From: Chiloscyllium plagiosum
Lineage: Eukaryota
DNA: 64,000 nucleotides
Direction of reading: 5' to 3'
NCBI RefSeq assembly: GCF_004010195.1
Contig: NC_057736.1
Coordinates: 5,853,376-5,917,375 of the forward strand
Part shown: piece by piece, positions 4,451-61,567 of the stretch
How the letters are laid out: each line of letters starts with the position of its first letter
Position numbering within the stretch: position 1 is the first letter of the stretch
Translations under genes and position numbers: made by a program
The notes under the pieces: generated by a model
Told to the model about the DNA's origin: nothing
The model's database searches: none
The model's input: the letters and a program-made list of their open reading frames with translations, nothing else

Positions 4451-5434
4451 TTACTACTTACTATTAGCATTGGGTTGGAAAGGTTTGCAGGCTGATACTA
4501 ACCTGTTTTGGCTACATAATGATTGCACCTATGTCTGCCAAACAGCTCCTTGAAGTAACAGTGAGTACACCTCAAAAACATTGAATTCCCCCTAATGTAC
4601 CTTGGATATCTTGAGTTTGTGACAGCAGCTATGCATATGCAAATTTCTTTGCTATTACGCTTTTAAATCATTGGATTAGGACATGAGCTCAACACCTGCA
4701 AGATAAGAACATTACCATAGATCCAAGACAACTGGAAGAGAAACTATATAATAAAGGAGACAGATTAGCAACTCAAATGGCTCTTTTGATGCGACACTGA
4801 ATGAATATAATTAGTGTGTACAGAAAAACAGCAGTAGGTCATTTAGAACCTTAAACTTGTTCTATTTGTAATGCAATTCATTATTAGCTCACCAGGAATG
4901 AATATTAGAATGAGACCACCGCTGGTGCTAGGTAAATTTACCTTGATGTGATCTGATAATTGGAACAGTGTTTCAAAGGCCAATTATGGTGGCCTAATTG
5001 GTGCATGGATGGAGGTGAATAAAGATTTGTATCGGTCATGTATTTTTAAATAGGATGCACTGACAAGAGTTTGTATATGAGACCACTTTCATCTGCCTGT
5101 CTCAATTTCACACTAAGATGTCTATAATTGTCAATTCTGTCATTGCAGGAGTTACTTATAACCCTAGCTTTAATTCTGTACAGTTTTAGGATTCTGCTAG
5201 AGCTTATCAGAACTACTCAACTAATCCATCTTTCAATCTCACTTCTAACTCGACACCACCCATCATACATCTCTCGCTGTTCAACCTATCCGCAATAATT
5301 GCAGGTTCAATGCAGGAACCATCATTGGAAATAGACATGGCTTAGAATTCTCTTGGTATATAAACTGGTTTATAAACTGAAAAATCATGAACTTATACTG
5401 GGAGGCCTTAGACAGTACTGATCTCAGATGGATA

Positions 5435-5645
5435 GGTAAAAACAAGGACTGCAGATGCTGGAAACCAGATTCTAGATTAGAGTGATGCTGGAAAAGCACA
5501 GCAGGTCAGGCAGCATCTGAGGAGCAGGAAAATCGACGTTTCGGGCAAAAGCCCTTCCTGATGAAGGGCTTTTGCCCAAAACGTTGATTTTCCTGCTCTT
5601 CAATGCTGCCTGAACTGCTGTGCTTTTCCAGCACCACTCTGATCT
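5435..5645. mobile_element. Fold-back (palindromic) PLE-derived element, family A, with hammerhead core
   Basis: Inverted arms centred near 5558; core ctgatga-agggc tttt gccc-aaaacgtt; direct repeat ctgatctcagatgga at 5418-5432 and 5639-5653. Confidence 0.9.
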
Positions 5646-6055
5646 CAGATGGAGTATTAATACTCACATTGTGAAAATTAGGGTAAAACTTTACGGATTG
5701 AATAGCTGGAAGATAATATAAAGCCCAGGAACGTAAAATATTGGACGCCACTTCGGCATAGCAGCCCAAGAGCTCTGAGTAGCAATTATGGAAACCAATG
5801 TAATCTACTTCTCTCATCTTCCAAGTGAATTAAGGAAGTTCTCAATCGAGGGCACTTGAGCTTCATCGGTTGTACAATGATACAGAGTGTCTCACAGAAT
5901 GTGAAATCTGTGCTGTTTGATTTCAAATATACACATAACATGTAAACAAAAGCAAAACTCACAAATTAGCATCTACCAACCTCCAAAAGGATCAATTATT
6001 TTTCTCCCACTTGTGAGTTGGAGCAGCATGATGATAAGTGCTATGGTCTCTATGC

Positions 6056-6282
6056 GGAGAAAGTGAGGACTGCAGATGCTGGAGATCAGAGCTGAAAATG
6101 TGTTGCTGGAAAAGCGCAGCAGGTCAAGCAGCATCCAAGGAACAGGAGAATCAATGTTTCGGGCATAAGCCCAAGGTTTCGGGGATTCCTGAAGAAGGGC
6201 TTATGCCCGAAACGTCGATTGTCCTGTTCCTTGGATGCTGCCTGACCTGCTGCGCTTTTCCAGCAACACATTTTCAGCTCTG
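6056..6282. mobile_element. Fold-back PLE-derived element, family A
   Basis: ~85-bp inverted arms; TSD tggtctctatgc at 6044-6055 and 6281-6292. Confidence 0.9.
6186..6219 (+). ncRNA. Minimal type I hammerhead ribozyme motif (intact core)
   Basis: CUGAAGA-A-GGGC UUAU GCCC-GAAACGUC: conserved core, 4-bp stem II, palindromic ACGU stem III and GUC cleavage triplet. Confidence 0.75.
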
Positions 6283-7879
6283 GTCTCTATGCCCCAACTC
6301 CATCCCTGGCTAAAAGATCTGTTTGGGAAGGACAACTACCCTGTAGACATTTAATAGCTAATTGCTAGAGGCAGGATTTCCACCATTCATAAGTGCCACC
6401 TTAGAAAGCTGAGACAATCAGTGCCAGTAGCGCCAGTGGGAGCACTGGTCATTGCTGGTAATGCATTTGGATACCATATAGTTGATTTGCCATAGATCAA
6501 ACCAGTGCAACCCTTTGGAGGCTGGCAGAGTCTAGGTTCACTAGCGTCCTTTAGGGAAGGAGATCTGCTGTCTTTACCTACTCTAGCCTACATGTGACTC
6601 TAGATCTACAACAAGATAGGATTGGCTCTTAACTGCCCTCTGGGTATTTTTAGATGGGCAATAAAAGCTGGCCCAGTCAGCAGTACTCATCCCATGAATG
6701 AATGAAAAAATGAGTGCCATCAGTTCTGATAGCAGAACCTCCTCCAGAACCATTACCACAACTTCCACATGTCCAGTCTTCAGACTCTTGTATTTCCTGG
6801 GTGAGAGACCTCTCTCACTAACCTTGGGCTACATTCTACCCTTGATCTTTATTATTCAAAACAAAAATCTTCCTGCTTTAGCAATGGCATTGCCTCTTAT
6901 ATGAAGAAAATCAAGGTTAATCACAATTGATGCTGTAACTACACCATTTATGGGGAATCAGCAGGAAAATGGATGTGAAAAGTGTTGGATCAGCCATGGA
7001 TCCTATTGAATGGTGGAGCAGGCCCTAGGGGCTGAATGGCCTACTCCTGTTCCTCTTTCTTGTGATCCTAAAAATAAGACACAGCAGTTTGATGAATACA
7101 GGCAAATAAACAAAATGTAATTTATTGACAAGCCAACCTTGTTTAACTGGAATGCAAAAAAAGAATAATGACATTGAGGACAAAATGCAATGACAAATTG
7201 TATGCTGAATATTTGGGAAGGAGAGCATTATTTTAAAAATGAGGTGGAAAACAACTAACATGATCAGGAGATACAATAGCTAATTATTAATATTATTTAT
7301 GATAGGTTAAAATTAGACTTATATTTTTCTGTGAGAATTGCTGCATGAGATCAACTAGTTATTATTTATTGATTTGTTTCACTTAACACAGAAGGGCAAT
7401 GATTGAGGAACAATTATCTTCGTCCCAGCAGTGGCCTCATTACTTATTATAAAGGAACACAGAGATATAACAGTTATAAATGCAGAAAAAAATGTCAATT
7501 TCTTTCAATTTGCACAAGAGTTGTATTTTCATTTGATCTCAAAATATATTCAATCAAGAAAGCCCAGTTAAGTTTCATGTTTCATTTGCACTGAATCCTG
7601 TAAAGTCTACCAATAGGTGCATGAAAGAATAAATGCAAAAATGGTAATTATTTTAAATCTATTCATTCGATATTTTTCCATCCTAGAATTCCTGAGATAA
7701 ATCCATTTAATATTTCAGTGAAACATCATGTATAAAAAGAGGCATTGCTGCAGTTTGAGGATCTGATAAGCCTGAAGCAGAAAATGGTATGTGCAAAAGA
7801 GATGTCACATGTGTGCAATGCATGAGATTCTTTGAAGTTGGAGATGAAGGATGTTGTGAAGCAAAGGGAGCTTTATCAC

Positions 7880-8929: not shown

Positions 8930-9090
8930 AAAGACACAAAGTGCTGGAAATATTCTGCAGGCCTCGGAGCATCTGTGGAGAGAGAAACCCTACTGAAGAA
9001 GAGACATACCAGACTTGAAATGTGAACTGTTTCTCAGTCCATGAATTCTGCCAGAACTGCTGAGTTCCTCCAGCACTTTCTATTTTTAAT
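8930..9090. mobile_element. Older fold-back PLE-derived element, family C
   Basis: aaagtgctgga...gcatctgtggagagagaaac / ctgaagaagag...gacttgaaa...ctgctgagttcctccagcacttt: inverted arms around a decayed hammerhead core. Confidence 0.65.
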
Positions 9091-9128: not shown

Positions 9129-10621
9129 TAGAACATAGAACAGTGCAGCGCAGTACAGGCCCTTTGGCCCTTGATGTTGTGGCGACCTGTGAAACTAATC
9201 TGAAGCCCATCCCACCTACACTATTCCATTTTCATCCACACGTCAATCCAATGACCATTTAAATGCCCTTAAAGTTGGCGAGTCTATTACGGTTGTCGGC
9301 AGCGTGTTCCACATCCCTACTACTCTCTGAGTAAAGAAACTACCTCTGACATCTGTCCTATGTCTATCACCCCTCAATTTAAAGCTATGCCCTCTCATGC
9401 TAGCCATCATCATCTGAAGAAAAAGGCTTTCACTGTCCACCCTATCTAAACCTCTGATTATCTTATATGTTTCAATTAAGTCACCTCACAACCTTCTTCT
9501 CTCCAACGAAAGCAGCCTCAAATTCCTCAGCCTTTCCTCGTAAGACCTTCCCTCCATACCAGGCAACATCCTATTAAATCTCCTCTGAACCCTTTCCAAA
9601 TCTTCTACATCTTTTCATAATGAGGTGACCAAAACTGTATGCAATACTTTGAGTGCGGCCGCACCAGAGTTTTGTACAGCTGCAGCATGACTTCATGGTT
9701 TTGAAACTCAATCCCTCTACTAATAAAAGCTAACACACTGTAAGCCTTCTGATGAAGGGCTTTTGCCCAAAACGTTGATTCTCCTGCTCCTTGGATGCTG
9801 CCTGACTGCTGTGTTTCTCCAGCACCACACTCTTGACTCTGATCTCCAGCATCTGCAATCCTCACTTTCTCCTTCTTAACAACCCTATCAAACTGGGTGG
9901 CAACTTTCAGGGATCTATGTACAGGGACACCAAGATCCCTCTGCACATCCACAGTACCAAGAATCCTACTATTTGCCCAGTACTCTGCATTCCTGGTACT
10001 CCTTCCAAAGTGAATGACCTCACATTTTTCTGCATTAAACTCCATTTACCATCTCTCAGCCCAGGTCTGCAGCTTAGCTATGTCCCTCTGTAAACTACAA
10101 CATCCTTTGGCACTATCCACGACTCTACCGACCTTAGTGTCGTCCGCAAATTTACTAACCGAACCTTCTATGCCCTCATCCAGGTCATTTATAAAAATGA
10201 CAAATAGCAATGGACCCAAAACAGATCCTTGTGGTATCCCACTAGTAATTAAACTCAAGGATGAACATTTCCCATCAACCACCACCCTCTGTCTTCTTTC
10301 AACTAGCCAATTTCTGATCCAAACCGCTAAATCACCCTTAATCCCATGCCTCCATATTTTGTGCAATAGTCTACCATGGGGAACCTTATCAAACGCCTTA
10401 CTGAAATCTATATACACTACATCAACTGCTTTACTCTCATTCACTTGTTTGGGCACCTTCTCAAAGTATTCAGTAAGGTTTGTGAGGCATGACCTACCCT
10501 TCTCAAAACCGTGTTGACTATCCCCAATCAACTTATTCCTTTCTCAATGAGTATAAATTCTATCTCATATAACCTTTCCAACACTTTACCCATAACCGAA
10601 GTAAGGCTCACTGGTCTATAA
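9129..10621 (-). mobile_element. Young CR1-type LINE, 5'-truncated, with reverse transcriptase domain
   Basis: ORF 10046-10531: QHGF..GRSCLTNL, DFSKAFDKVPH, GIPQGSVLGPLLF, FADDTK. Tail atagaacatagaac at ~9129. Interrupted at 9748-9872. Confidence 0.95.
9748..9872 (+). mobile_element. PLE family A terminal repeat with hammerhead core, nested in the CR1
   Basis: ctgatgaagggcttttgcccaaaacg...cctcactttctcc; the CR1 sequence rejoins across it with a short ccttct duplication. Confidence 0.88.
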
Positions 10622-18629: not shown

Positions 18630-18830
18630 GGAGTTAAAATGTGTGGCACTGGAAAATCACAAAAGGTCAGGCAGCATCTGAGGAGCATGAAAGTTGATGA
18701 TTCGAGCATAAGCTCTTCATCAAGAATGTCGACTCTCCTGCTCCTGGGGTGCTACCTGAGCTGCTGTGCTTTTCCAGCGCCACTTTTTTTTGACTCTGAC
18801 TATCCAACATCAGCAGTCCTCACTTTCTCC
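18630..18830. mobile_element. Fold-back PLE-derived element, family A (decayed)
   Basis: Inverted arms; ctattcaaa duplicated on both sides. Confidence 0.8.
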
Positions 18831-19344
18831 TATTCAAACAAGGTATCAACAAACTGCAACAACACTAATTTGTTACTGGGCTGCTTCATATACTGAGATC
18901 CCACAGGTTGCGAAAGATCTTTAGCAGTCTGATAGATGTCATGGGCTCCATCTCCAGATTGACCCAGGTGCAAGCAAAACAGCAAAGGAGAGGCAAGGGG
19001 CCCAAACCAATATCCTCAACAGTCTCACACACACTGCTCATGTTGATGTCAGTATTAAGAGATCCACGTTGTGCCCCATCTTTTGGTAAGCTGGGTGACT
19101 GAAGGTCAGAAAACCTAAAAAAGGAGAAGAGCCAAATATTTAGGAGTAATCCTTGGTTAAAAGAAAAGGGTTGAATCTTCTCACTTCAAATACGTACAAC
19201 TCAGTATCCTCCCACAATTTCAAGAAGAGTTGTGGCTCAAATAATTCTAATCCAGAATTGAACAGGGAGATGGATCCTACAAAAACTTGGCACACCCTAA
19301 ATATGAGTACCACAGTTATGCATTCTAACATAATGTCAATATCA

Positions 19345-19565: not shown

Positions 19566-19587
19566 GTTAGCTGATTGTTAATATGGA

Positions 19588-20160
19588 GGAGAAAGTGAGG
19601 ACTGCAGATGCTGGAGATCAGAGTAAAAAAAGTGTGGTGCTGGAAAAGCACAGCAGGTCAGGTAGCATCCAAGGAGCAGAAGAATCGACGTTTCAGGCAT
19701 AAGCCCTTCTTCTCTCACTGAGATCCTTGTAGAGGGAGGAGGAGAGCTTCTTCAAGGTAGGCATCCTTGCAAGTGGATTCGCAGTAGGTTAAGATCAACT
19801 AGGAGAAAGTGAGGACTGCAGATGTTGGAGACCAGAGTTGAAAAGTGTGGTGCTGGAAAAACACAGCAGGCCAGGCCAGAGTTCTCCTGCTCCTCGGATG
19901 CTGCCTGGCCTGCTGCGCTTTTCCAGCACCACACTTTTCAACTCTGGTCTCCAGCATCTGCAGTCCTCACTTTCTCCTAGTTGATCTTAACCTACTGCGA
20001 ATCCACTTGCAAGGATGCCTACCTTGAAGAAGCACTCCTCCTCCCTCTACAAGGATCTCAGTGAGAGAAGAAGGGCTTATGCCTGAAACGTCGATTCTTC
20101 TGCTCCTTGGATGCTGCCTGGCCTGCTGTGTTTTTCCAGCACCACACTTTTCAACTCTGA
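19588..20160. mobile_element. Large fold-back PLE family A insertion (~570 bp) with tandem terminal repeats
   Basis: 19615-19877 is the reverse complement of ~19900-20160; degenerate TSD ctgattgttaatatg/ctgattatcaatgtg. Confidence 0.9.
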
Positions 20161-20177
20161 TTATCAATGTGCCCCAC

Positions 20178-25850: not shown

Positions 25851-27665
25851 AATAAGGTACTTTTGATACGATGTGGTAAACAATATTGCTGGGCCTTGTG
25901 GTGTGAATCCTTCCAAAAAAAACGCACACTTAGCCAAAAGAGCTTAAAAGCCTCTATAGCTTAAATTCTGTGTTACATTTCACTGCAGTTGGCATCGGGT
26001 ATTTTCACTGGCAACAGTGTTACAATAGCTGCCATTTTATAATCATTGTGCATCACCATGAGCATTGACAATCTGGCCACTGCTATTCCATTCGTTTTAT
26101 AATATCTCCTGAATGTCTTCACCTTCCCATCTGTCATTTTCTCTCAATCCTGAAATTTATAATATCAAAATAAAAGGGTTTAACCCTTTAAGCCTTGCCT
26201 GGGTATTGTTGACTGAGGAAGTATTTATATTCATTGTCAGCCAGTTTCTGAGACTGGCAGCAACTCTGGGAGATTATGCAGATGAAGAAAATCTCAAAGT
26301 CACTGTGTGTGACTCCACACTCCTCTGCTGGATGCATTGTTGAGGTGCCTTGGAGTGTAATACTGAAGAAAGCAGTAAATTCATGAAATCTCAACTTTTA
26401 AGCTGCTAGTTTAATGTAAAAACATCATTGGATGAGATGTAACAGGGGCTACAATAGCATACTGCCTTCAGAATTATAACCAAACATCCTTACTGGCCTT
26501 GAAAAGCAATTTATGTATTTGCAAAATATTAAATTTCTCCATTATGATAAACTCCAAAGGTTTACTGTAATAATATTTTTAATATTGTTGATTTAGCTTT
26601 CATATAAAGCCAAACATAATAGTTTATTTCGTTAACTGAATTTTCTTCACTTCTAGGCTAAATTAAGTACTTCAGGCTTTGTTTTTTGGTCAGTGAGCGT
26701 ATGTCGATATGATTGGCTGCTTACCCTATGTACTGATATCGCTACTGTTATGTGCCTGGAGATACCCTTGACTTGGTTTAGCATTAAACTGTCATTGGGA
26801 AAGTGAAACTCTGCAACCAGAGGGATTGCTCAATCTTTGTGCAGAGCTTCCTTTGTCCTTATATTTCTACAAAGTTTCAGCTGAGATTATTTGGTCAATA
26901 TATTTAAAGTGAAGTTGCAACAGATGATCATATTTTTAAAAATATTGTATATCCTTTAATTAACCATTATTATTAGGAATGCCTCAACCTCTCTCTAAAG
27001 CCTGTAGTTGGACTGATTTTTTTTTTCCCCTGAAATCTTGGCACGATGCAATGAATTTGAGTTGTGCAATCTGGCTATGCAAGGCTTATTTAATTTCTCA
27101 GGATGTGTTACATTCAGTCAGTTGTACTGGTGGGATATCATTCTTTGCCTTCCAAAACTTCATGCTTCAGAGCTTTTATTTAAGTAATTTTGAAAAACAA
27201 CAGGACAAATTTTAAACAGCTTTAGGGAGTTAAAATTGATGTTATTTTTAAAACAGAAAAGGAAGAGAGTTGTGTGTGAATGAACTCAAGAGCAAGATAA
27301 CAATGTGGATGCTCTGAAAATCTGTCCACTGCAGCATTTTTTATGTTCATTAAAATCCAGAGAGTACTAAAACAGAAAAGGAGGCCTAAGGTCAGAAAGG
27401 AAGAAATGGGCAAGAGAAACTAGATTCCTTAAAAAAAACCTGTTCAGAGATAAAAAATCTAACAGGACTAGACAGGATAAATGCAAGAAGGATGTTCCCA
27501 ATAACTGAGGAGCCCAGAATCAGGGGTCACAGTTTGAAGATATGGGTCAGCCATTAAGGACTGAGGTAAAGGGAAACTTGTTCACCCAAAGAGTGGTGAG
27601 CCTGTGACGATGTCACAGCAAGTGGTTAAAGCCAAAACATTGAATGTTTTCAAGAAGGTGTTAGA

Positions 27666-28418
27666 GGACTTATACACTTAATGGTAAGGTCCTAGGGAGT
27701 GTTGCTGAACAAAAAGACCTTGAAGTGCAGGTTCATAGCTCCTTGAAAGTGGAGTCACAGGTAGATAGGATAGTGAAGAAGGTGTTTGGTATGCTTTCCT
27801 TTATTGGTCAGAGTATTGAGTACAGGAGTTGGGAGGTCATGTTGTGGCTGTACAGGACATTGGTTAGGCCACTGTTGGAATATTGTGTGCAATTCTGGTC
27901 TCCTTCCTATTGGAAAGATGTTGTGAAACTTGAAAGGGTTCAGAAAAGATTTATAAGGATGTTGTCAAGGTTGCAGGATTTGAACAGGCTGGGGCTGAAC
28001 AGGCTGGGGCTGTTTTCCCTGGAGTGTCGGAGGTTGAGCGGTGACCTTACAGAGGTTTACAAAATTATGAGGGGTATGGAAAGGGTAAATAGGCAAAGTC
28101 TTTTCCCTAGGGTCGGGGAGCCTTGAACTAGAGGGCATAGGATTAGGGTGAGATTGGAAAGATATAAAAGAGATCTATGGGGCAACTTTTTCACAAAGAG
28201 AGTGGTACGTGTATGGAATGAGCTGCTAGAGGAAGTGGTGGAGGCTGGTACAATTGCAACATTTAAGAGGCATTTGGATGGGTATATGAATAGGAAGAGT
28301 TTGGAGGGATATGGGCTGGGTGCTGGCAGATGGGACTAGATTGGGTTGGGATATCTGGTCAGCGTGAAGGGTTGGACCGAAGGATCTGTTTCCATGCTGT
28401 ACATCTCTATGACTCTAT
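27666..28418 (+). mobile_element. Young CR1/HER1-type LINE 3' fragment inserted in an older CR1 (27450-28535)
   Basis: ORF 27725-28126 ...RPLLEYCVQFWSP...LERVQKRF; tail catctctatgactct; the older CR1 resumes at 28419. Confidence 0.92.
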
Positions 28419-29022
28419 ATAATTCTTAGAGCTAAAGGGATCAAAGGGTATGAGAAGAAGGTGAGTTGGGTAATAAGCCATGATCATATTAGATGGGAGA
28501 GTAGGCCCAAAGGGCCAAATGGCCTACCCCGATGCTATTTATGCTATTGGCCACCCCTGCAATAGGAGCAAGTTGAATTCAGGCCTCCTAAACCAAAAGT
28601 AGGAACAATACCATTGTAGCACAAAGGCCTGTCTGGTTGGGACAAATTGGTAGACATTACTTCCCAATGTAAAGGAATAGCAGATGAGGAATTTGATCCA
28701 TTGACCACTTGTATGGTCAGAAAGTACATATGTGCATTTATTTGTATAAATGTCATTTTCATTTTCAAAAGAGTTAAATGGTAAAGCCAACCTCATTATT
28801 GGAATTTGGTAAAGGTCACTGAGTTCTGATTATGAAATGTTTTAATTTCTTAGACCTATGAGGCAGGGAGAATGTCAAAGAGAAGTGTTTAAAACAACTG
28901 ATTCCTGGTGAGACAGTATTTAGCTTCTCAAGATCCACTCTTGTGGAAGTGGGTGGAAGCTAATGGTAGAGGGAAGAGTGGGTAGGGAGCTAATAACAGG
29001 ATGATGGACAATGTACCAAGTA

Positions 29023-29502
29023 GGAGAAAGTGAGGACTGCAGATGCTGGAGATCAGAGCTGAAAATGTGTTGCTGGAAAAGCGCAGCAGGTCAGACAGCA
29101 CCCAAGGAGCAGGAGAATCGACGTTTCTGGCATAAGCCCTTCTTCAGGAATGAGGAAAGTGTGCCAAGCAGGCTAATATAAAAGGTAGGGAGGAGGGACT
29201 TGGGGGAGGGGTGTTGGAAATGCGATAGGTCGAAGGAGGTTAAGGTGAGGGTGATACAGTGAGGGTGAAAGGCCGGAGTGGGGGTGGGGGCGGAGAGGTC
29301 AGGAAGATGACTGCAGGTTAGGAAGGTGGTGCTGACCTCCCCGCCCCCACCCCCACTCCGGTGGTTGGTCCGGGTGTCCCAGAGGTGTTCTCTGAAACGT
29401 TCCGCAAGTAGGCGGCCTGTCTCCCCAATATAGAGGAGGCCACATCGGGTGCAGCGGATGCAGTAAATGATGTGTGCGGAGGTGCAGGTGAATTTGTGGC
29501 GG
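29023..29502 (-). mobile_element. Penelope-like element, 5'-truncated and internally deleted, with GIY-YIG endonuclease remnant
   Basis: HIIYCIRCTRCGLLYIGETGRLLAERFREHL; family A terminal repeat with hammerhead core at 29119-29147; TSD accaagta at 29015-29022 and 29503-29510. Confidence 0.92.
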
Positions 29503-31475
29503 ACCAAGTAGGCAAGAAAGTTAGTGATGGTAGAGAAGGGAATTTTTCATACGAAGGTAAAATGGTAAGGAACATATTTGGAATGATGGGGCAGGGGTAA
29601 CATGATGGGGAAAACCACTCAAGTCCACATTTTTTTGCAATCTTCCATCTCATTGCAAGTCAGATCACCACTAAAAGGTAAATCAGGACAAAGCCAAAAC
29701 AGCAAAATAATTAAAGCAGTGATGCAGAGCAGGAAGAAATACACTGGAGCACAACAGGAAATTGACATCACACAAACATCAGATAGAGCAAATGGGCAAG
29801 GTAAGGATCCAATCTCTTTGAATCACAAAACTCACATCATCTTGGTAGTCTTCTTCCAAATCTGTTTCTAAGTCCACAATGTCTACAATGTCGAAAACTA
29901 CTTGTTTAGTACTTTTGACAGGTGGCTCAGTTGGTATGACAGATAGATCTGTTTGTATAACTGTTAGACCAGTCTCTGAGAGAGGTTCTTCATCATTTTC
30001 TGGTGTTTCTTCTTCTTCTGGTACCTTATAACAATAAGAAAATGTGGGGAGAAAAAATGATTCCAGCTGCTAAATTAAAGGGCAGAGATCAAACCATGAT
30101 TATGCCTGTCTGGTTTTAAGATCTGGCTTTTCAATATAATATATATGTACCCAATATATAAATATATATTTTAATAATATTGCTTTGACCTGCTATGTCA
30201 CATATATTCATGGCAATCATAAACATCAGTGAGATTAGAGGGTAGCAGCCATATGGAAGTCTGAGGTAAGTTTCCCTCCAAGTCACAAACCATTCTGAAT
30301 GAATCATCATTCCTTCACTGTGACTGAGACAAAATCCTGGAATGCTCCCCGCCTCCGAGCTGAGCTCACGACTCAAGGGCAATTTGGGATGTGAAATACA
30401 CCCAGACACTGTGAAGTGCTGATTGAGGAAGGAATAATGACCAGGAAAATTGGAGAATTTCCTGTTCTACAAATGGAGCCACAAAATCTTTAACATTCAC
30501 TGTTAATATCCCGGATCTTGAGGACTGCAATTCCAACATTACAGGACTCACAATTCTACGTTGTTCATCTGGTTAGAATCAATACTAAAATATTGAAATG
30601 GGGTTTATTCCAGAAACTTCTTTCTCAGCTGGCCCAATATTGCACACTAGTAGGCTATATAAATATTTGGGATCTTGGTTTCATTGTTTTTCCAAGGTCA
30701 AACGAAAAATATCAGGACCAGCTTTCTGGAGCTTAAGTAGTCCATCATTGACTTGTGCTCAAACTGTGTCAATATTGACACCCAATTACATAATTTCAGA
30801 TCCATTTTGTGGCAGCATTTAGCCAGATTGAGCTTCTGGAAATTATTGCTGTGTAGAATGAATAACACAGTCTATGTTATTGATGAAACTTAGAAAACGA
30901 CATTGCTTAATGCAAGAATTAATGATTCTTCAAATCTGAAAATGCAGCATCAACCAGACCATTTTGAACTTTACCACAACTCAATAACAAATTTGATGTA
31001 AATCCGGGCTTAAGATGTTCCATTGTTACTTTATCAGGCTCCACCAAATTCAATTCTATTGATTGATCAGTCTCCTTGGCCACTTACTGCTCACCTCATA
31101 GTTAGCTGTTAATTTCCATGATTGGACTTTGTCAAGCTAATCTACAGCTTTGGAATCACTGATTAACTGAAGGAACCAAATCATCATTTTAAGTGACTAT
31201 CTTTATTGGCTTTACAGCTGGAGCAGTTAATAGAGACTTTATTGTAAAGATTTTCTCAGTTACCAATGATTTCTATTTGCACATTTCCATTCAGAGGTAT
31301 TGCAAGACTAAAAGAATGAACTGATTGTAGAAATATCACAGACAGAACTGCAAAATGGTTTCAGTTGCATTACTTCTGTGAATATTAAAAGGGCAATTCT
31401 TTAGTAAAAGAAGTTGAGCTACTGGATGTGAAACTCATTATAGTCACAGATGGCTGGAACCTGCTCTCTCTTTGG

Positions 31476-37656: not shown

Positions 37657-39123
37657 AGTAGAGTCATAGAGATGTACAGCATGGAAACAGACTCTTCGGT
37701 CCAACCTGTCCACACCGACCAGATATCCCAACCCAAACTAGTCCCACTTGCCAGCATCCGGCCCAGATCCCTCCAAACCCTTCCTATTCATGTACCCATC
37801 CAAATGCATCCTAAATGTTGCAATTGTACCTGCCTCCATCACTTCCTCTGGCAGCTCATTCCATACACGTACCACCCTCTACGTGAAAAGGTTGCCCCTT
37901 AGGTCTCTTTTATATCTTTCCCCTGTCACCCTAAACCTATGACCTCTAGTTCTGGACTCCCCATCCCAGGGAAAAGACTTTGTCTATTTATCCTACCCAT
38001 GCCCCTCATAATTTTGTAAACCTCGATAAGGTCACCCCTCAGCCTCCGACGCTCCAGGGAAAACAGCCCCAGCCTGTTCAACCTCTCCCTGTAGCTCAGA
38101 TCCTCCAAACCTGGCAACATCCTTGCAAATCTTTTCTGAACCCTTTCACAACATCTTTCCAATAGGAAGGAGACCAGAATTGCATGCAATATTCCAACAG
38201 TGGCCTAACCAATGTCCTGTACAGCTGCAACATGACCTCCCAACTCCTGTACTCAGTACTCTGACCAATAAAGGAATGCATTCCAAATGCCTTCTTCACT
38301 ATCCTATCTACCTGCGACTCCACTTTCAAGGAGCTATGAACCTGCACTCCAAGGCCTCTTTGTTCAGCAACACTCCCTAGGACCTCACCATTAAGTGTAT
38401 AGGTCCTGCTAAGATTTGCTTTCCCAAAATGCNNNNNNNNNNNNNNNNNNNNNNNNNNNNNNNNNNNNNNNNNNNNNNNNNNNNNNNNNNNNNNNNNNNN
38501 NNNNNNNNNNNNNNNNNNNNNNNNNNNNNNNNNNNNNNNNNNNNNNNNNNNNNNNNNNNNNNNNNNNNNNNNNNNNNNNNNNNNNNNNNNNNNNNNNNNN
38601 NNNNNNNNNNNNNNGCTCTGTCCTCATCAATCTTCTTTGTTACTTCTTCAAAAAACTTGATCAAATGTGTGAGACATGATTTCCCACGCACAAAGCCATG
38701 TTGACTATCCCTAATAAGTCCTTGCCTTTCCAAATTCTTGTACATCCTGTCCCTCAGGATTCCCTCCAACAACTTGCCCACCACCGAGGTCAGGCTCTCC
38801 GGTCTATAGTTTCCTGGCTTGTCTTCACCACCCTTCTTAAACCATGGCACCATGTTAGCCAACCTCCAGTCTTCTGGCGCCTCACCTGTGACTATTGATG
38901 ATACAAATATCTCAGCAAGAGGCCCAGTAATCACTTCTCTAGCTTCCCACAGAGTCCTCAGATACACCTGATCAGGTCCTGGGGATTTATCCACCTTTAA
39001 CCATTTCAAGACATCCAGCACTTCCTCCTCTATAATCTGGACATTTTGCAAGATGTCACCATCTATTTCCCTACAGTCTATATCTTCCATATCCTTTTCC
39101 ACAGCAAATACTGATGCAAAATA
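37657..39123 (-). mobile_element. Young CR1/HER1-type LINE with RT, spanning the assembly gap
   Basis: ORF KSPGPDQVY...PGNYRP.SLTSVVGKLLE...SQHGFVRGKSCLT; tail agagtcatagag. Confidence 0.95.
38433..38614. other. Assembly gap (182 N)
   Basis: Run of N inside a CR1 copy. Confidence 1.
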
Positions 39124-39559
39124 TAAAATACAGACAAAAAAAATTGCCTTAACTGTAACTCTATCAAAATGCCTAACAAAATAATAGATATATAAACTAC
39201 TAATTAACTGTTCTAATATAGTAACAGCCTATAAACACACCCTTGACAAAGGCAGATTGTCTCACATGCAATTCTAACAGCAGGAAGAGATTCCCAGCTT
39301 TTAGCTAGAGCAGAGAGAGGAATCAGAGCTTCCACAGGCAGCTGCAAGACCCCAGCAAATGCAGAAAGCTAAAGCTAAATATTTTTGTTTTGTGGAAGCT
39401 TGCCCCCACCCATTCAGGCTGCTTCTGTTGTTACAACTTTTAAAAAAGGCCTTATAACATGTTTACCTCTTTGGCTTTGGAGCAAAAATGCTCATTGTCT
39501 CTTTTTTCAACAAAAGAACCAGGACAAAATACACATCTTAAAGTCATAGTATCATCATG

Positions 39560-40960
39560 TATGTAATTGCACAATATAGATGACATGTCAGAACATTGGG
39601 TAGAATATAAAAGAAGTAACAAATGACAAAAATATTAATGGAGGAATTGACGACCAAAGAAAGCTAGCTAGATATATAAAACAGGTAAGAGTTTCTGTAG
39701 ATATTTAAAAATTAAAAAGAGATGAAGTGAACCTTGGCCTAAGAAAGTGAACCTGGAAGTTAATAAGAGAAAACAAGTACCTGGTAGATAAATTGAGTAG
39801 GTATTTCTATTGTTCTTTGCTCTAGAAGATACCATGATCATCTTAGAAATAGCTGTAATTCTGGAAATAGAACAAAGAGAGGTACTATGTTGTGAAGAGG
39901 ATACAAGAAGGCTATAATGGGATGAAGATAGATTGTGTATGATAGGAAAAAAATCAGACAAATAGGGTATAATATGGGGAAAAATGAGAATGCTTTTTAT
40001 GGTGGAAAGAATCAACTAGATACATATTATTAAAATTACAAGAGATTGCAAAGCTTTTGGTGCTGGGTGTGCTAACGTGTGAATTGTAAAAGCAAAGTAT
40101 GCAAATACAGCAAGTAATCAGGAAGGCAAATAGAATGTTATTATGATGTGGAGGTGCCAGTGTTGGACTGGGGTGGACAAAGTTAGAAATCACACAGCAC
40201 CATGTTATAGTCCAACAGGTTTATTTCACAGGTATGCTCCACAACCACCTGATGAAGGAGCAGCGCTCCGAAAGCAAGTGCTCCCAAATAAACCTATTGG
40301 ACTATAACCTAGAGTTGTGTGGTTTTTAAGAAGGAGAAAGTGAGTTCTGCAGATGCTGGAGATCAGAGTTTTTAAGAATGTTATTATTTATTGTGAGGAG
40401 TTGAATACAAAAGCACAGAGGTTATATTTCCATCATACACTGTATTAGGGAGATTTCATCTGGCGTACTGTGTATAGTGTCAGTTACCTTATTTAAGGAA
40501 GGATGGAAATACATTGGAAGAGTTCAGGGACTTTTAACCACAGCAGTACTTGGAATGGCCTATTTGTCTTACGAGGGAAAGAAGGACAGTCTGTTCATTT
40601 GTGTTCACTGGGATTTAGAGAAGTAAGAGGTGAATTGTTTGAAACACACAAAATCCTGAGCAGCTTTGACAGAGTGGATATGAAAAGGATGTTTCTTCTT
40701 GCAGGAGAAGCTAAAATCTGGCGTCACTGTTTATAAGGAAGGAGTTGGCCATTTCAGAGCGAGATGAAGAGAAAACTTTTTTTCACAGAGGGTGATGAGT
40801 CTTTTGAAACCCTTTCTCAAAACAATGAAAGCAGAGTCCTTGAATATTTTAAAGGCAGAGAGATCCTAAATAAAGTCATAGGAGCTGAAAGTCTTTCTGG
40901 AGGAGATGGGAATGTGAACAGATCAGCCATGACTTAATTGACTGGGAGAACAGGCCAGGG
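39560..40960 (+). mobile_element. Old CR1-type LINE (continuation of 36040-36620)
   Basis: Decayed ORF2 and tail (gatcagccatgacttaattg). Confidence 0.72.
40143..40368. mobile_element. Fold-back element family B with hammerhead core, plus a nested 36-bp family A end
   Basis: cac-ctgatga-aggagc agc gctcc-gaaagc at 40246-40275; agaatgttatt duplicated around the insertion; family A stub 40333-40368 flanked by gtttttaagaa. Confidence 0.85.
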
Positions 40961-41749: not shown

Positions 41750-42810
41750 CTAGGGGTCAGCAATCACTGCAACAGGAATCCACATAGTCCGCTGGAAGCC
41801 GCGGGGAACCAACAACAAACATTTCCAATGACAATTTACAGGCTCCTCGTTTTGTCTTAACAGAGAACAAAGATCGCAGGGCGAGTCGCTTTTGTTTTAT
41901 TAAATTAGGAACCGTAGCCAGCCGCGCGAAAACAAAAATCCCCTCCACCAAAACAAAAGCCAAGCGGAGAAACCCAGTGAAAGAAAGACTGATGAGGGCG
42001 GCGGTTGGGAAACAATGTAATTAGGGGCGAAGGATATAGACGGGATGAAAATGCAAATAAAATGTCAAACATAAAACAGAAGCGGATTCAAAATGTGGGG
42101 CTGGGAAATGAGACAAACTGGATGGGGCAACTTAAATGGTTTGGGTGTGAGTTGGACAGTGAATGTCTGAGTGACTGGGAGGGAGAATGAAATAGAGGAG
42201 CTGCTGAGGGGGGAATATAAAATCAGACACCCACCCCATGGAAAGAATTGATGATAATATTACTCCCACCACACCCAGAGCCACGTGGTTTGATCTTTTG
42301 ACTGCAGAACCTGTGTTCTGTGTTTGAACAAGCGGGTGCCCAGTTAAAAGGAGCAGGGAAAGGATATTATGCACAGCCCAGCGGCTGCAGACTGAACCTC
42401 TTGTCTTCATTCTGTTGGAGGAAGGGCTATGGACTCGCTCAATTTCAGCAACACCCGTGTTTAGATTTCCAGCATCACAGATCCGCTGTCGGAGAGAGAG
42501 AGAATGGACAGTAACATCTGAAGGTGTGGCAGACCGTAAGAGGCAAAGTCTAAACATCAGGACTATGAGAAGGAAATGAGAAGCGGACTAGAAAGGGACC
42601 CCTCCAGGTCTGCCTAGGGTCCCCCCCCCCCCCCCCCTCTCCTCCCCAGAATCTCTGACCTTGCCGTTGTGTGAATGGTGCACGGAGTATGCTGACCAGC
42701 AGCAGGAGGTGCTTGGTGTGAGTCAGTTTCAACTCAGCCTTTACCTCCTCCAGTGTTAAACCCATTCCAGGTTGATCCTTCCTGCTGCCACTGACTTCGA
42801 GCTCGGTACC
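41750..42810 (+). promoter_or_regulatory. CpG-enriched promoter/5' UTR of NKAIN1
   Basis: CpG clusters (ccgcgg, gccgcgcg, gggcggcgg) at 41780-42010 and a poly-C tract at ~42621-42637, upstream of the ATG. Confidence 0.55.
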
Positions 42811-45519: not shown

Positions 45520-45730
45520 TCATGCTGGAGAAACTCAGCAGATATGGCAACATCTGTAGAGAGAAAGAAAGATTCACTATCATGAGTCCAATATGATCTT
45601 TCAGTGGAGAATTCTAAAGAGGATTCATTCTAGTCTCAACATTAACTCTGTTTGTCTTTCAGCAGATGTTGATGGACCTGCTGTGTTTCTCTCACACTTT
45701 GTACTTCAAATCTCCAGCAGCCCCAATATC
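45520..45730. mobile_element. Decayed fold-back PLE family C element
   Basis: tgctggagaaactcagcag...catctg / cagatg...cctgctgtgtttctc inverted arms. Confidence 0.65.
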
Positions 45731-49725: not shown

Positions 49726-50300
49726 AGGAGATGTATTTTGATGTAGGGGGTAGGGTCATCTATAATTGTGTGATAGCCAATTTCTAGATGAGCAAACTGA
49801 AATCTTTTTCAACACATGAAGGCTCAGACAGATTATGCTCACAAAGCCAATTATTATCTGTGAATCCTCTGACCTGCAGGACCTTTTGATATGCATTTTC
49901 AGGCTTGACACTATCTCTACTCAACGGCTGCCAAAAGTTAGCTTCTTGACACTGTCTTCAATTTGTTTTTTATATGCCTTTGACTTTCTAACTGAGTGTT
50001 ACCTTTAACCACACTTGGAACCTGATGTAGATTATAATGAGTGTAGAGTGAGAAGGTGAATCTCTTCAGAATTGCAACTGAGACTGATGAACAATGAACT
50101 ATGCATTTTTGATGTTGCTTTGTATTACATTGAAATCAGTAGTGTCTTGATTGGCACTTACAGGGGTGCAGATGCTAATAGACAGAGAGACCCATTGGCA
50201 TTCAATTAGCCAAAACAGGTTTGCTTTCTGTTGCTGCCATGGCAATACTTCAGAGTTAGATTTTTACATTAAATTGAAATAACAATACCTGAATATTTTA

Positions 50301-50504
50301 AGTTAAAAATCACACAACACCAGGTTATAGTCCAACAGGTTTAATTGGAAGCACACTAGCTTTCGGATGAAGGAGCATCACCTGATGAAGGAGCGTCGCT
50401 CCAAAAGCTAGTGTGCTTCCAATTAAACCTGTTGGACGATAACTTAGTGTTGTGTGATTTTTAACTTTGTACACCCCAGTCCAACACCGGCATCTCCAAA
50501 TCAT
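50301..50504. mobile_element. Fold-back element family B with hammerhead core
   Basis: ~65-bp near-perfect inverted arms; ctgatga-aggagc gtc gctcc-aaaagcta at 50382-50410; TSD tgaatattttaagtt at 50290-50304 and 50504-50518. Confidence 0.9.
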
Positions 50505-51189: not shown

Positions 51190-51383
51190 ATCAGAAATCA
51201 TATGGCACCAGGTTATAGTCCAACAGGTTCATTTGAAATCACAAGCTTTCAGAATACTTCTCCTTCATCAGGAGCAGTGCTCCAAAAGCTTGTGATTTCA
51301 AATTAACCTGTTGGACTTTACCTGGTGTCATATGACGTTTGACCTTGTCCACCCCAGTCCAACACCAATACCTTCACAACATG
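51190..51383. mobile_element. Fold-back element family B (variant)
   Basis: Inverted arms around ccttcatcagg; catgactgtt on both flanks. Confidence 0.8.
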
Positions 51384-52499: not shown

Positions 52500-52627
52500 T
52501 GGTTAAAAATCACACAACACCAGGTTATAGTCCAACAGATTTATTTGGAAGCACTAACTTTCAGAGCACTGCTCTTTCCTCAGGCGCTTTAATTTTGTCC
52601 ACCCCAGTCCAACACCGGCACCTCCAG
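52500..52627. mobile_element. Family B partial copy
   Basis: aaatcacacaacaccaggttatagtccaac...ccccagtccaacaccggcacctcc. Confidence 0.75.
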
Positions 52628-53329
52628 TAGTCTTTCCTGTTTCTTTTCCCAGCACATACTAGTTTTCAGCACGAAGGCAACTGTGAAAAGTAACCCTCTA
52701 CCTGTGAATAGAAACTTTATTTTGTATGTGAAGTGACTGAAGTAGCAGATTGTTTAGTTGCATTAATTTATACTTTTGAAGCTTTCATATAGACCAAAAC
52801 CAATGTAGCTTTCCACTGTGCGTTTGGAACTTTCTGGTTGGTGGACGGCCGGCATGCTGACAAACTGTTTGTGTATTTCAGTAAATTGCAAATGCTGTTT
52901 TTATTGAAATGTGAAATTCATACTGAAATAACAGGCTTTCTTAGTGAAATATAAACCAAACAGTTCTGAACTCTGCTGAGGTGAAATTAACAAAACTAAG
53001 GTGCTGTTCCTGACGGTGGATTGGAATTGACTGTCACTCCTACTCAGGATAGGAACCATCACGTGCCCAATTTCGATGTAAATCTTGGGGACACAGGATC
53101 AGATCTTGCAAACAATGGGCACTACCTTATAGGCCATAACCTATTTCCATTTGGACCCATCCATTCCCTCCGTGACCCAAAACATGTCAATTGGTGTCTG
53201 TCCCATTGCTGTTCAAGTCCTGAACCACCATTCTCCTTCCAACTCATCCCAACTCATCATTGCCACTACTGGTTACCTAGCTTCTCCTGCTTTCCTCCCT
53301 TGTGACATCGAGTTAGACAAACAAAACCT

Positions 53330-54203
53330 TCGTCATTTTTGTCATCTCCAAACAGACCCCACCACCAAGGATATATTTCCCTCCCCTCCCTTATCAGCAT
53401 TCTGGAAAGATCACTCCCTCCGCGACTCCCTTGTCAGGTCCACACCCCCTCCAATCCCAGCACCTTCCCCTGCAACCGCAAGAAATGCAAAACTTGCGCC
53501 CAGACCTCCCCCCCTCACTTCCCTCCAAGGCCCCAAGGGATCCTTCCATCTCACCTGCAACTCCACACACATCATTTACTGCATCCGCTGCAGCCGATGT
53601 GGCCTCCCCTACTTTGGGGAGACAGGCCGCCTACTTGCGAAACATTTCAGAGAACACCTCTGGGACACCCGCACCAACCAACCCAACCACTCCGTGGCTG
53701 AACACTCTAACTCCCCCTCCCACTCCGCCAAGGACATGCAGGTCCTTGGCTTCCTCCATCGCCAGACCATGGCAACATGACGCCTGGAGGAAGAGCACCT
53801 CATCTTCCGCCTAGGAACCCTCCAACCACAAGGGATGAATGCAGATTTCTCCAGCTTCCTCATTTCCCCTCCCCCCACCTTATCTCAGTCCCAACCCTCG
53901 GACTCAGCACCGCCTTCTTGACCTGCAATCTTCTTCCCGACCTCTCCACCCCCACCCCCTCTCCGGCCTATCACCCTCACCTTAACCTCCTTCCACCTAT
54001 CGCATTCCCAATGCCCCTCCCCCAAGTCCCTCCTCCCTACCTTTTATCTTAACCTGCTTGGCACACCCTCCTCATTCCTGAAGAAAGGCTAATGCCCAAA
54101 ACGTCAATTCTCCTGGTCCTTGGATGCTGCCTGACCTGCTGCGCTTTTCCAGTAACACATTTTTCAGCTCTGATCTCCAGCATCTGCAGTCCTCACTTTC
54201 TCC
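53330..54203 (+). mobile_element. Penelope-like element 3' half: GIY-YIG endonuclease remnant plus family A terminal repeat
   Basis: FPCNRKKCKTC Zn-linker, HIIYCIRCSRCGLPYFGETGR...FREHL, EEHLIFRLGTLQPQGMN; hammerhead core at 54078-54105; TSD caaacaaaacct at 53318-53329 and 54203-54214. Confidence 0.93.
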
Positions 54204-55429
54204 AAACAAAACCTCCAGTCAGATCCATAGATTAAAGAATCTTGCCTGGTGAACACACCTTTATTTGTGCCTTCAGGAGATGTGAGTGCCCAAGTATTGC
54301 CCAGTTAATTTGAAACCTCCTTTCAAGATTTTGAAATGCTCTCCGTTGTGTGTTCCTCATATGCAGATGGATGGAGAATAAGTATCTGCTATTGGATGGT
54401 AAATGATGGATCCACCACTGGTTGCCAAGTTTATCCCAAGGGATGTCATCCTGACATCACGAAAATGAACTTTGGTTTCAATCCTGGTTTCCTGAACTGA
54501 GACCCCATCCAATTCTGTTCTGGCTTTCAGTCCCTGTCCCCTTTTGCAGCATCTCCATCCGGCTCCTGTCATGCTTGGCCACCAGTGCCCACTTCACCTA
54601 GGCCTTTGGATAGTAATGGCAGTTATGTGCTCACATAATGCCAATGGTATTTCATCTGAATACATAACGGACTCTTCCAACTTGAGATGAAGGTCTTTGT
54701 CACCTGCCATGTAAAATGTTTAGAGTTAGTCAGGGCAGTGAAGGACTGGATATGTCCCCACCTCCTCTTTTAATTACTACCTGCTCTGAAATCAAGACCA
54801 ATGTACCAGCCCTCAAAACCAGGGAAGAACAGAACACTCAAATTGAGGCATGCAGTTTGTTTAGTGTTTAAAAACAACAAATCAGTAAGTTAAGAATATG
54901 AAGTATTTTGTCACAATGAATTAAAAATGCACTGATATACATTTTAAGGATGGAGTGAATTCACAAAGATATCCGGGATAAATGTGAATTTTTAATCATT
55001 AATTAACTACTTTGCATAAAGTTTTGCGTGAAAAGAGGGGCAAAAATATTCTGTTGAGAAATGCCTTCAGTTCATATTTTTGTTGTCCATTTGTGACTGT
55101 TGGTTGCTTAGCATAACAGAAGTAGACATAGCTTTGTCTATTCAAAGTGTGTAAACAATACAATGATAACTGAGTGAAGACTGCAATGTTTATCCTGAAT
55201 ACAAGACTATGAAAGTTCATGAACAATACTCCCACATAATGATCATTCTGGAAAGAGTCAAACCAGGGAACAGTTACAACAGTGACCCCTTGAAGTCTAA
55301 TGCACGTCTTTGAGTTAGCTTTAGAATTCTGTGTGCAGCCTGTTGTTAATTCCAGTGAGTGATGATTGTCAAATGTACATTTATATTTTTCAATGACTAG
55401 TGTTTTATAAGTATGGAAGTATAAGCTGT

Positions 55430-59217: not shown

Positions 59218-59720
59218 AGTTTTGAGAAGATTTGTAGCTCAAGTTGAGGTTATGGATGTAGGGTTGCTCACTGAGCTGGAAGGTTCATTTCCAGACGCTT
59301 CGTCACCCTACTAGGTCACATCTTCAGTGGGCCTCAGGCGAAGTACTGCTGATAACTCCTGCTTACTATTTATATGTTTGGGTTTCTTTCAGTTGGTGAT
59401 GTCATTTCTTGTGGTGAAGTCACTTGTTGTTCTTTTTCTCGGGGGTGGTAGATAGGGTCTGACTCGATGTGTTTGTTGATAGAGTTCTGGTTGGAATGCC
59501 ATGCTTCTAGGAATTCTCATGCATGTCTTTGTTTGGCTTGACCTAGGATTAATGTGTTGTCCCAGTCGAAGTGGTGTCCTTTCTCATCCGTATGTAATGA
59601 TACTAGTGAGAGAGGATCATGTCTTTCTGTGGCTAGTTGGTGTTCGTGTATCCTAGTGGCTAGTTTTCTGTCTGTTTGTCCAATGTAGTGTTTTTTACAA
59701 TTCTCGCATGGTATTTTGAG
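59218..59720 (-). mobile_element. Penelope-like element family D, 3' end (GIY-YIG remnant plus hammerhead)
   Basis: KIPCENCKKHYIGQTDRKLATRIHEH; CCA-CUGAAGA...GAAGCGUC-UGG at 59291-59330. Confidence 0.85.
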
Positions 59721-61567
59721 TGTGACCTTGGATGAAACTGTCAGACGGGTTTAGGCAGTGCATTCTATTGCTCATTTATGCATCTTTATCCACCCATCAC
59801 ATCTTTCTGCTGGAAAGAATGCATTCAATTAACATCAGCAACAACTCACATTCTGTACAAAGGATGCTGGGACAGAAAGGGAATATGGTACCATCACTGC
59901 TTAAACTTAGGCTGTCTGAGCATGGCTTGACAAAAAGGGTGAAGATGTGTGTGTGTGTGTGTATACACACGTACGTACAAGCTGGTCATATTTGATATTT
60001 CCTGGTAGCAGTGTTCTACTAACTAAATTGACAGCTGAGCGGCAATGTAATTTCAGATTATTTCAATGGCAATGCTGATGAAGCAATCATGCATGTTAAA
60101 AATTATAGAGTAAGGGCTAAGGGAAATTATTTATCCTGTCCAGTTTCAATCTAGTAAAGATAGGTTCACTGCATTCTATTAGTTTCAAACTAAGGACAAG
60201 AAAGATTGCATTTGTAATGCTTTCAAAAATAGTTTGAACATGTGGACCATGAGAAATAATATCTACCTTATTAGAAATGTTGTGTATTTCTTATTTACCT
60301 TGATAGACACAAGTGGGAAGTGAACTGAGGTATAGAATCTGCATATGAACAATAAGTAGCAATAAAAAAGGATTAGGATCAGTCTTAGTTGGCCAGAGTG
60401 CCTGTTCTTGTATTGTATTTCCTTTTCTATTTGTTGAATGATGGAGCCCAATAAAAATGGAAAAGTATTACAGAGACACTGCTTTGTATCGACAGACTGA
60501 TGGTTAGCATTAGTTTCTTCTTGATAATGCTTTTTTATTGTTGAATAGCTTCATTTGCATGCCGTTTTCACTTTTTATTTTGCTTGTGGTGCTTTGGTTG
60601 TAGTGCTAAATAATTTTTTCCATAATTTCTTCCTGTGTTGGCCAAATAAATGTCAAGTTATTGGCTGCAAGTTTATCCAGCCAAAGAGCTTCATTTAAGA
60701 ACCAGCGCTGATTCTGGTTTAATAAGTTGAATGAATTTTTGTGTTGGAGTTTCTCTGACATTGTCCTTTAATGCAGGAAACTTTATATAAAATTTAAATT
60801 GTTGTAGGCCATTTGTTGGGAATCCAATCCTTAGTACCATCAGATCCTGTGATCGTGGTTCTCCTTTTGTAAGCTGTTTGCTTTTGTTTCGAACAACCTG
60901 TCAAACTGAAGTAGCCTCTGCTCCCTATAATTTTAATGCCTGCTTCTGCCAGTTTCCTTTACACTTTTTCACAAGAACAGAGAAGTCCGTCGGTTTTTTT
61001 GTACCGTGGAGTCATATTTCAGAGAAGGTGAATGCTAGGCAGCCAGAACTTGTTTCACTCGTGGTTCTGAACATTTCATCTGAGGTATGTTCCACAGATT
61101 TTATTTGTCTGGATTTAAACCCAAACCTACAAACAGTTACTGAATAATATCTGAACATTCTGCGCAAACTATTTCCTTTCTGATGTGGTGCCAAAACCTT
61201 TTTAAGCAATTGGATTCAGTGTCCATTGTTCTGAATTGGGGACCCAGAAAATTAAGACTTTTCATGTGCACTGACTATTGTTGTCCTTTTTAGTTGTGGA
61301 AGTCATGGGTTTGGAAGGTGCTGTCAAGTTAACATTATGTTTGCATGTTTGAGGTATTTGTTCTGTTTGTAATAGGGATGACTTGGAAATTGTCCACCAC
61401 ACATGAATCAAGCAGGTAATACATTGGCGCAATAAACAGATATTTTGATTGCATGTTTTAATATTCTGTATATTGTACTGATCTACTGAGTAACTGGATG
61501 AGAGATTGGGAATATTGATCAGAGATCGTTGACGTGAGGCCCATTTTTGCACAAATAAAGAGTTCAA

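Follow-up and report, generated by a model that had tools for sequence, protein, structure and literature searches.

The 64,000-nucleotide stretch of Chiloscyllium plagiosum DNA analyzed here (the window; NC_057736.1, positions 5,853,376 to 5,917,375) contains, at 5418–6292, two short inserts in which a terminal repeat is joined to its own inverted copy. Judged by their sequence, both are head-to-head stubs of the pseudo-long terminal repeat (pLTR) of a Neptune-type Penelope-like element (PLE) and form no jumping unit of their own. We consider it likely that such pairs are formed anew by double priming on RNA of a single source, with the two cDNAs running off at its capped 5' end. The two inserts themselves are probably inert by-products. 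The proposal builds on the parentage of the stubs, the length of their target-site duplications (TSDs), two fixed outer ends, joints formed de novo, matching arms, a wall at the inner ends, an extra G beside it, and jumps of the cDNA.

The two inserts and their parent element

Positions within the repeat are counted from the first C of the hammerhead core CTGANGA (position 0), which places the predicted ribozyme cut after +27; the core numbering follows PMC4209133 and is applied to these elements here. The first insert lies between two plus-strand TSD copies of 15 bp, at 5418–5432 and 5639–5653, the initial bases of the right copy also matching the element. Its tail-bearing arm (family Ab, 5434–5557, minus strand) runs from an inner end at +5 to the tail end and is without the CTGAT box of the hammerhead core. 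The short arm (5555–5640, plus strand) has its inner end at -3 and stops about 45 nt before the tail end. The arms overlap by 3 nt (TTC, 5555–5557) and the turn surrounds a 5-nt loop; the hammerhead core of the short arm starts at 5558 and is broken at two CpG sites, 5578 and 5585.

The second insert is flanked by plus-strand TSD copies of 16 bp at 6040–6055 and 6277–6292, which differ by one mismatch and share 12 bp exactly; up to 11 nt of the right copy overlap with element-like sequence. The tail-bearing arm (family Aa, 6056–6172, minus strand) runs from +8 to the tail end. It is followed by a plus-strand filler of 12 nt (6173–6184), similar to 6153–6163, whose last base is an extra G (6184). 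The short arm (6185–6276, plus strand) starts at -4, the putative transcription start. It reads ATTCC and then an intact minimal hammerhead core, identified at 6189–6216 by motif scan, with the predicted cut after 6216. An Rfam scan gave no hammerhead family match, and 21 of its 22 matches were microRNA models on hairpins, all below the gathering score.

In both inserts the tail is on the left; the right arm breaks off sooner, at a point where target and element are similar in sequence. The inverted arms overlap by 84–91 nt and align to each other in self-BLAST with E = 7e-60 and 3e-70. The original prediction, made from the window alone, of two insertions of about 210–230 bp, each a terminal repeat with its own inverted copy and TSDs, is borne out, the TSDs measuring 15 and 16 bp. 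It was also right that inverted terminal-repeat segments are known in PLEs, where this architecture has been described (PMC3846280, PMC8557442).

The repeat of the inserts is the 3' end of a 5'-truncated copy of family Aa in the window (53133–54204, plus strand), which comprises an endonuclease fragment, 3' untranslated region (UTR), pLTR and tail. A search with the endonuclease fragment returned 133,914 first-look candidates, 150 of which were scored. Two of the five proteins scanned (L138 and L141) matched RVT_1 above the cut-off and GIY-YIG just under it (E 3e-4); the remaining three gave no domain match. Family Aa pLTRs stand downstream of these RVT_1/GIY-YIG open reading frames (ORFs), and the linker between reverse transcriptase (RT) and endonuclease (EN) carries CxxxxCxxC in three of the four aligned proteins. 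According to PMC8557442, such a Zn-finger-like linker motif marks Neptune and holds also for Nematis. Since the repeat lies at the 3' end of an RT/GIY-YIG element with this linker, the inserts, and the stubs in general, appear to derive from EN-containing (EN+) Neptune-type PLEs, the Neptune label coming from the linker motif. The family Ab pLTR follows a homologous ORF of about 70% identity (tblastn), and family B is tied to PLEs by a single RT match at 24% identity. No full-length element was recovered, the long frames being partly N gaps. The three repeat families of the window had been thought unrelated in sequence. Family D proves to be related to family A, the family of the inserts (scores of 41–46 against shuffle maxima of 25–29), and only family B (at 40143, 50301 and 51190) is unrelated to A and D.

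Formation of the pairs

Families A and B were counted in 120 stretches of 10 kb, 20 adjoining the window and 100 spread across contigs C1–C36, together with the window itself (1,221,607 non-N bases, about 1.22 Mb). Strict thresholds yielded 315 arms, with 79 head-to-head and no tail-to-tail pairs within 60 nt, and therefore the pairing is not due to chance. With relaxed thresholds we obtained 88 pairs and 162 unpaired arms, so that pairs account for about half of the arms and one third of the insertions, and to call them the dominant insertion type was an overstatement. Part of the unpaired arms have far partners, 17 head-to-head versus 7 tail-to-tail within 1.5 kb. The median pair length is 193 bp and the density 72 pairs per Mb, which extrapolates roughly to 256,000 pairs in a genome of 3.56 Gb.

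Most pairs (75/88) combine one tail arm with one short arm. Among 60 young family Aa pairs with a TSD of at least 12 bp, a set that includes pattern-selected loci, the TSD measures 14–16 bp in 53. The tail junction falls at -3 to +1 of the tail end in 49 of 55 cases (5 junctions with untemplated bases dropped), and the short junction at -38 to -34 relative to the tail end in 36 of 51 (9 dropped). The 60 TSDs contain no target-site motif apart from the junction bases. The two outer ends resemble the pair of start sites flanking the tail in the anole element studied in vitro (PMC11167929).

These outer ends bear on the possibility, raised in the original prediction, that the pairs are ordinary miniature inverted-repeat transposable elements (MITEs), and equally on the possibility of assembly artefacts. 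Long inverted ends without an ORF would suit the former, and the latter would draw on the N gaps of the assembly and on L289 (G000:C2:96215), a probable assembly collapse beside an N gap, where the two arms stop at one and the same base and the flanks on either side are identical. However, the TSDs are 14–16 bp long, the ends are unequal by 34–38 nt, and the sequence is identical to retroelement pLTRs. Moreover, the arms differ by about 3%, the flanks are unique, and opposite-strand joints at -4/+7 are present in the raw reads (13 reads, 11 starts). We rejected the MITE class, as there is neither a fixed short TSD nor symmetric fixed ends, and regard both explanations as scarcely credible.

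Each insertion creates its pair anew. No two of the 88 sampled pairs have the same ends and joint, and 63 distinct joints occur among 81 young Aa pairs, many of them pattern-selected. The joint of insert 2 occurs once in the whole genome and is shared by none of its nine best relatives. The joint of insert 1 has 199 exact occurrences. Of the first 30 of these loci plus the window (n = 31), 14 have the tail on the loop arm, 13 have it on the other arm and 4 are unclassified, and at least five subfamily variants can be distinguished by eye. A master palindrome would fix both polarity and subfamily; as both vary, the insert 1 joint is a microhomology hot spot. The rule that breakpoints shared between loci indicate amplification of the palindrome is therefore misleading here.

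These results make it very improbable that the pairs constitute a self-propagating, retrozyme-like hairpin class, in which the palindrome is transcribed and retrotransposed as a unit. The recurrence of some joints, as in the 199 copies of that of insert 1 and the 63 distinct joints of 81, speaks for such a class, and so does one tandem-pLTR joint found at two loci. Yet the recurrent joints are defined by microhomology and occur in both polarities and in several subfamilies, the filler joint of insert 2 is unique, and retrozymes are head-to-tail repeats (bioRxiv 10.64898/2026.07.22.740005). Retrozyme membership was rejected on the head-to-head arrangement, on finding only 2 same-strand neighbours among the 315 arms, and on the lack of unit amplification. 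A minority of pairs may nevertheless be copied as units. The tandem-pLTR joint in question, from +204 to -27 without visible microhomology, is found in two independent insertions, at L255/L276 (G000:C3:61.36 Mb) and at L277 (G000:C24:33.12 Mb); it is possibly a remobilised protein-less tandem and a candidate first step towards a retrozyme.

Of 557 diagnostic non-CpG sites, 551 are the same in the two arms of a pair, whereas different pairs disagree at 7.5% when they carry the same subfamily label and at 22% when all pairs are compared. This match would also be expected from fold-back of DNA, in which a single cDNA would turn back on itself at the hammerhead hairpin and serve as its own template, the centre becoming asymmetric through later deletions. 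The idea is close to the self-priming, on an antisense template, that PMC3846280 proposed for PLE inverted pLTRs. The insert 1 joint, with its 3-bp stem and 5-nt loop, fits fold-back, as do the rare variants shared between arms, slightly above controls (5 against a mean of 0.4 and a maximum of 4 of 200), and two loci that bear the same jump joint in both arms. Most rare variants are unshared, 85 versus 5, and therefore no wholesale conversion between arms has occurred. Comparing inward reach in 72 pairs, we found the short arm to extend further in 29, the tail arm in 20, and equal ends in 23. Where the short arm extends further, it holds inner sequence that its partner lacks, and only the partner has the tail, so neither arm copies the other.

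Several further observations disfavour fold-back. Among 57 paired arms ending at -4, the short arms are as numerous as the tail arms (28 and 29). Solo arms occur with either outer end (15 and 20 of 35), including short-end solos with TSDs. At L249 only one of the arms jumps at +31, the other continuing beyond it. One of the two jump joints shared by both arms has a third copy at a separate locus and was probably already in the RNA; the other, at 19587–20161, has none. Fold-back is in our view unlikely, and we favour two arms templated independently by RNA.

Inner ends and the start of the RNA

The inner ends were mapped in 306 family A arms, after removal of pattern-selected arms, the central elements of L002–L010, and arms adjoining gaps. 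Ninety-two of them end at -8 to -2 (0.086 per nt), compared with 2 at -40 to -16 (0.001 per nt) and a density of 0.004–0.008 per nt at +13 to +25 and +32 to +45; 54 arms extend further upstream than -15. In genome-wide exact counts, 5,386 of 23,831 (23%) differ at -4, 5,033 of 18,445 (27%) at -5 and 2,616 of 13,412 (20%) at -6. The first 30 loci that are intact to -5 divide into 9 with an end at -5 to -12 and 21 that end further up, with none at -13 to -34. The arms therefore turn over at a wall that coincides with the ribozyme's 5' edge and lies about 30 nt upstream of its cut; a minor peak is present near the cut. The original prediction that arms turn over at or beside the hammerhead holds for its 5' edge and fails for its cut. 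One of its alternatives, that pairs are a stereotyped by-product of target-primed reverse transcription of PLEs, is supported; the fold-back at the ribozyme that it added is contradicted by the position of the main peak and by the private sequence that each arm holds.

The wall is marked by an additional base. Where arms are intact to -4 and the base at -5 is not the C of the element, 68 out of the first 100 listed have a G there, compared with 15/100 at -4 and 20/100 at -6 (all hand counts). We followed up 89 loci (one duplicate dropped) with 93 arms: 57 paired, 35 solo and 1 point change in a long copy. The extra G is present in 41 of the 57 paired arms and in 21 of the 35 solos, where 26% would be expected (p = 2e-5). 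Among the G-solos, 17 have a TSD; the G comes from the target in 11 of them and is untemplated in 6. That it belongs to the target in 11 of 17 is as predicted if the target pairs with a terminal C of the cDNA.

A capped transcript that starts at -4, at the A of TCATTCC, would account for both the wall and the G. We take TCATTCC to be an initiator-like word; in family B, TATAAA stands at -40. Raw RNA reads at -4 mirror genomic copies with mixed flanks and reveal no start site, individual loci being inseparable from thousands of copies. Folding of the predicted 5' RNA gives z = -0.70 and no hammerhead fold as a monomer.

Alternatively, the ends could be set by the hammerhead, through self-cleavage or through stalling at its structure. 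A second, smaller peak does exist at the ribozyme cut, with 22 of the 306 arms ending at +26 to +31 (0.014 per nt, about twice the neighbouring bins). Position -4 is also the 5' edge of stem I, and the short arm of insert 2 retains an intact core. The main peak, however, lies 30 nt upstream of the cut and leaves the whole ribozyme in place, and the G bias is confined to -5. In the anole element, the cut is dispensable in vitro and no reads end at it, according to the parts of PMC11167929 used here. We rate control of the ends by the hammerhead a little lower still than fold-back. The joints likely mark the capped start of the RNA and not the ribozyme cut, which has at most a minor part.

At 212 places the tail continues into downstream element sequence, which runs into an ORF-like frame. 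In 20 of the first 30 such loci a second pLTR adjoins the downstream stretch, with the joint at +189 to +204 in 15 of the 20; this second pLTR mostly begins at about -4, several times with the G. Such tail-downstream-pLTR joints are what a cDNA that reached the 5' end and then jumped back onto the RNA would leave. In another group of pairs, both arms extend upstream of the wall with inner ends that are sometimes close (L137, -89/-80; L192, -71/-83; L196, -71/-67; L111, -53/-39). Close ends of this kind would fit one broken RNA as common template; L076, at -63/+34, is a counter-example.

In the mechanism we propose, a staggered cut of 14–16 nt would open the target, and both target ends would likely prime reverse transcription on sense RNA of one source, at two sites. 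Reverse transcription would start inside the RNA at the 5' pLTR and, as with strong-stop cDNA, arrive at the 5' end once about 95 or 130 nt have been copied. The transcript would start at the capped A of TCATTCC, and both cDNAs would run off there. A pair would result when the two cDNA ends are joined by 1–4 nt of microhomology or by filler, a solo when one cDNA joins the other target end, and a tandem pLTR when the cDNA jumps back onto the RNA. Either a single RNA, copied twice with strand displacement, or two RNAs from the same locus could have served as template.

A number of observations weigh against this mechanism. Besides the smaller peak at the cut, 13 of the 88 pairs lack the tail/short asymmetry (10 short plus short, 3 tail plus tail), and a TSD was identified in only 45 of the 88. 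Microhomology with the target is raised, at 2.06 nt for the short end and 1.51 nt for the tail end (0.54 and 0.49 when shuffled), although taking the longest repeat as the TSD inflates both figures. In PMC11167929 the strands did not differ in start site, and homology to the cut DNA was not observed. About 5 of the 35 'solos' could be wrongly classified, as element-like sequence is present upstream of them. Family B, with 21 arms, shows a broader wall (-14 to -1) and no established extra G. Both the start site and the cap are inferred; untemplated addition of C at any RNA end could also yield the extra G. Finally, of the two loci with one jump joint in both arms, that at 19587–20161 requires a lost or mutated source, or one arm copied from the other.

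The proposed mechanism has partial counterparts in known systems, which are cited for the portions consulted. EN+ PLE insertion units (PMC3846280, PMC8557442) likewise have an inverted 5'-truncated pLTR head to head, a one-sided tail of 30–40 nt, a TSD, a palindrome or overlap at the joint, and partial tandems. They differ in that both shark arms are reduced to pLTR, at about 72 pairs per Mb, and in that the TSDs are 14–16 bp long in shark pairs and 8–10 bp in the rotifer examples. The origin of tandem and inverted pLTRs and of the tail was named an open question in PMC8557442. The shark joints lie at a wall marked by a G, and two arms templated by RNA fit the evidence better than the self-priming of PMC3846280; the stub population thus favours a different route for PLE inverted pLTRs.

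The anole Poseidon element in vitro (PMC11167929) resembles the shark elements in its two internal start sites bounding the tail, in the cutting and extension of both strands, in not needing the ribozyme cut, and in a predicted dimer. Poseidon belongs to a different clade, whereas the shark elements have a Neptune-type linker. The consulted portions of that study report no head-to-head product, 5' wall or strand-specific start site, while 75 of 88 shark pairs use each site once. Minimal hammerheads of metazoan PLEs (PMC4209133) share with the shark pLTR a minimal core with long helix II and short helix I. Most of those copies come from truncated PLEs, and opposite-strand pairs 100–700 bp apart were noted; the sections examined give no account of their joints, TSDs or mechanism.

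In L1 twin priming (PMC11702581), as proposed here, the second target end primes inside the RNA by microhomology, the TSDs are discrete, full-length 5' ends carry an extra G, and the joint is sealed by end joining. That study traces the G at the L1 5' joint to the mRNA cap and notes that it can act as microhomology. The L1 cDNAs copy adjacent stretches, whereas the shark arms copy the same 90–100 nt and give a palindrome. On the strength of the 84–91 nt arm overlap in the two inserts, we rejected an L1-type twin-priming structure, although the process works similarly. Non-LTR retrozymes (bioRxiv 10.64898/2026.07.22.740005) are also protein-less, hammerhead-bearing and derived from PLE pLTRs. 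They have a ribozyme in each head-to-tail unit, whereas the head-to-head shark pairs mostly have one core or none and are not amplified as units.

The architecture and the in vitro two-site extension of both strands are thus already published, and the proposed stub mechanism was not found in the literature searched. We found no published account of a 5' wall, extra G, capped-end stubs or overlapping double priming in PLEs, with subscription papers, older Penelope papers and supplements outside the search. On a broader view, the quarter million or so stubs would be an in vivo record of PLE replication. Both target ends would prime at sites about 36 nt apart on one capped RNA, the trailing polymerase would displace the leading cDNA, and both would reach the cap just upstream of the hammerhead. 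The fates of the cDNAs would then yield inverted pLTRs, the one-sided tail, solos, and partial tandems from which retrozymes can arise. For this broader view we see the case as evenly balanced. The stubs offer testable positions, namely a start at -4, priming at the tail end and 34–38 nt before it, and a stagger of about 14–16 nt. Double priming would explain why the genome holds an estimated 256,000 hairpins resembling MITEs and microRNA precursors.

Other pairs and elements in the window

The six other sites at which the same architecture had been predicted are all inverted pairs, five of them scoring above all 200 shuffles and the one at 50301 recognized by self-BLAST. Two are old head-to-head pairs of family D (8930–9080, related to family A, and 45520–45700) for which no TSD was found. 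A family A pair at 18641–18831 has its tail on the right and an imperfect TSD by eye. The remaining three belong to family B: 40143–40329, with a 13-bp TSD identified by script; 50300–50504, the self-BLAST case, with a 15-bp TSD (script); and 51195–51366, with a TSD also found by script. At the short end of the pair at 40143–40329 there is a 37-nt tail-only family A stub (40332–40368) with its own short TSD. An additional family B pair, absent from the original prediction, lies at 52502–52626 and has a tail arm of 39 nt.

A larger head-to-head pair occupies 19587–20161. In this 575-bp palindrome each arm consists of a pLTR, about 87 nt of downstream RNA and a second pLTR, and the jump joint, identical in both arms, has no other exact 29-mer match anywhere. 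A longer family A copy at 29022–29546 contains an internal 89-bp inverted repeat (29273–29361) where the 3' UTR meets an endonuclease fragment.

On the minus strand, at 59218–59329 and 61560–62123, hammerhead-bearing family C follows a GIY-YIG-like frame that has no Pfam match; its DNA is unrelated to families A, B and D. Fragments of non-LTR reverse transcriptase frames, which we take to be CR1-like, are present at 9605–10543, 27665–28126 and 38096–39228. An open frame with a hydrophobic stretch at 42132–42587 (minus strand) lies in a GC-richer region and may be a host exon.

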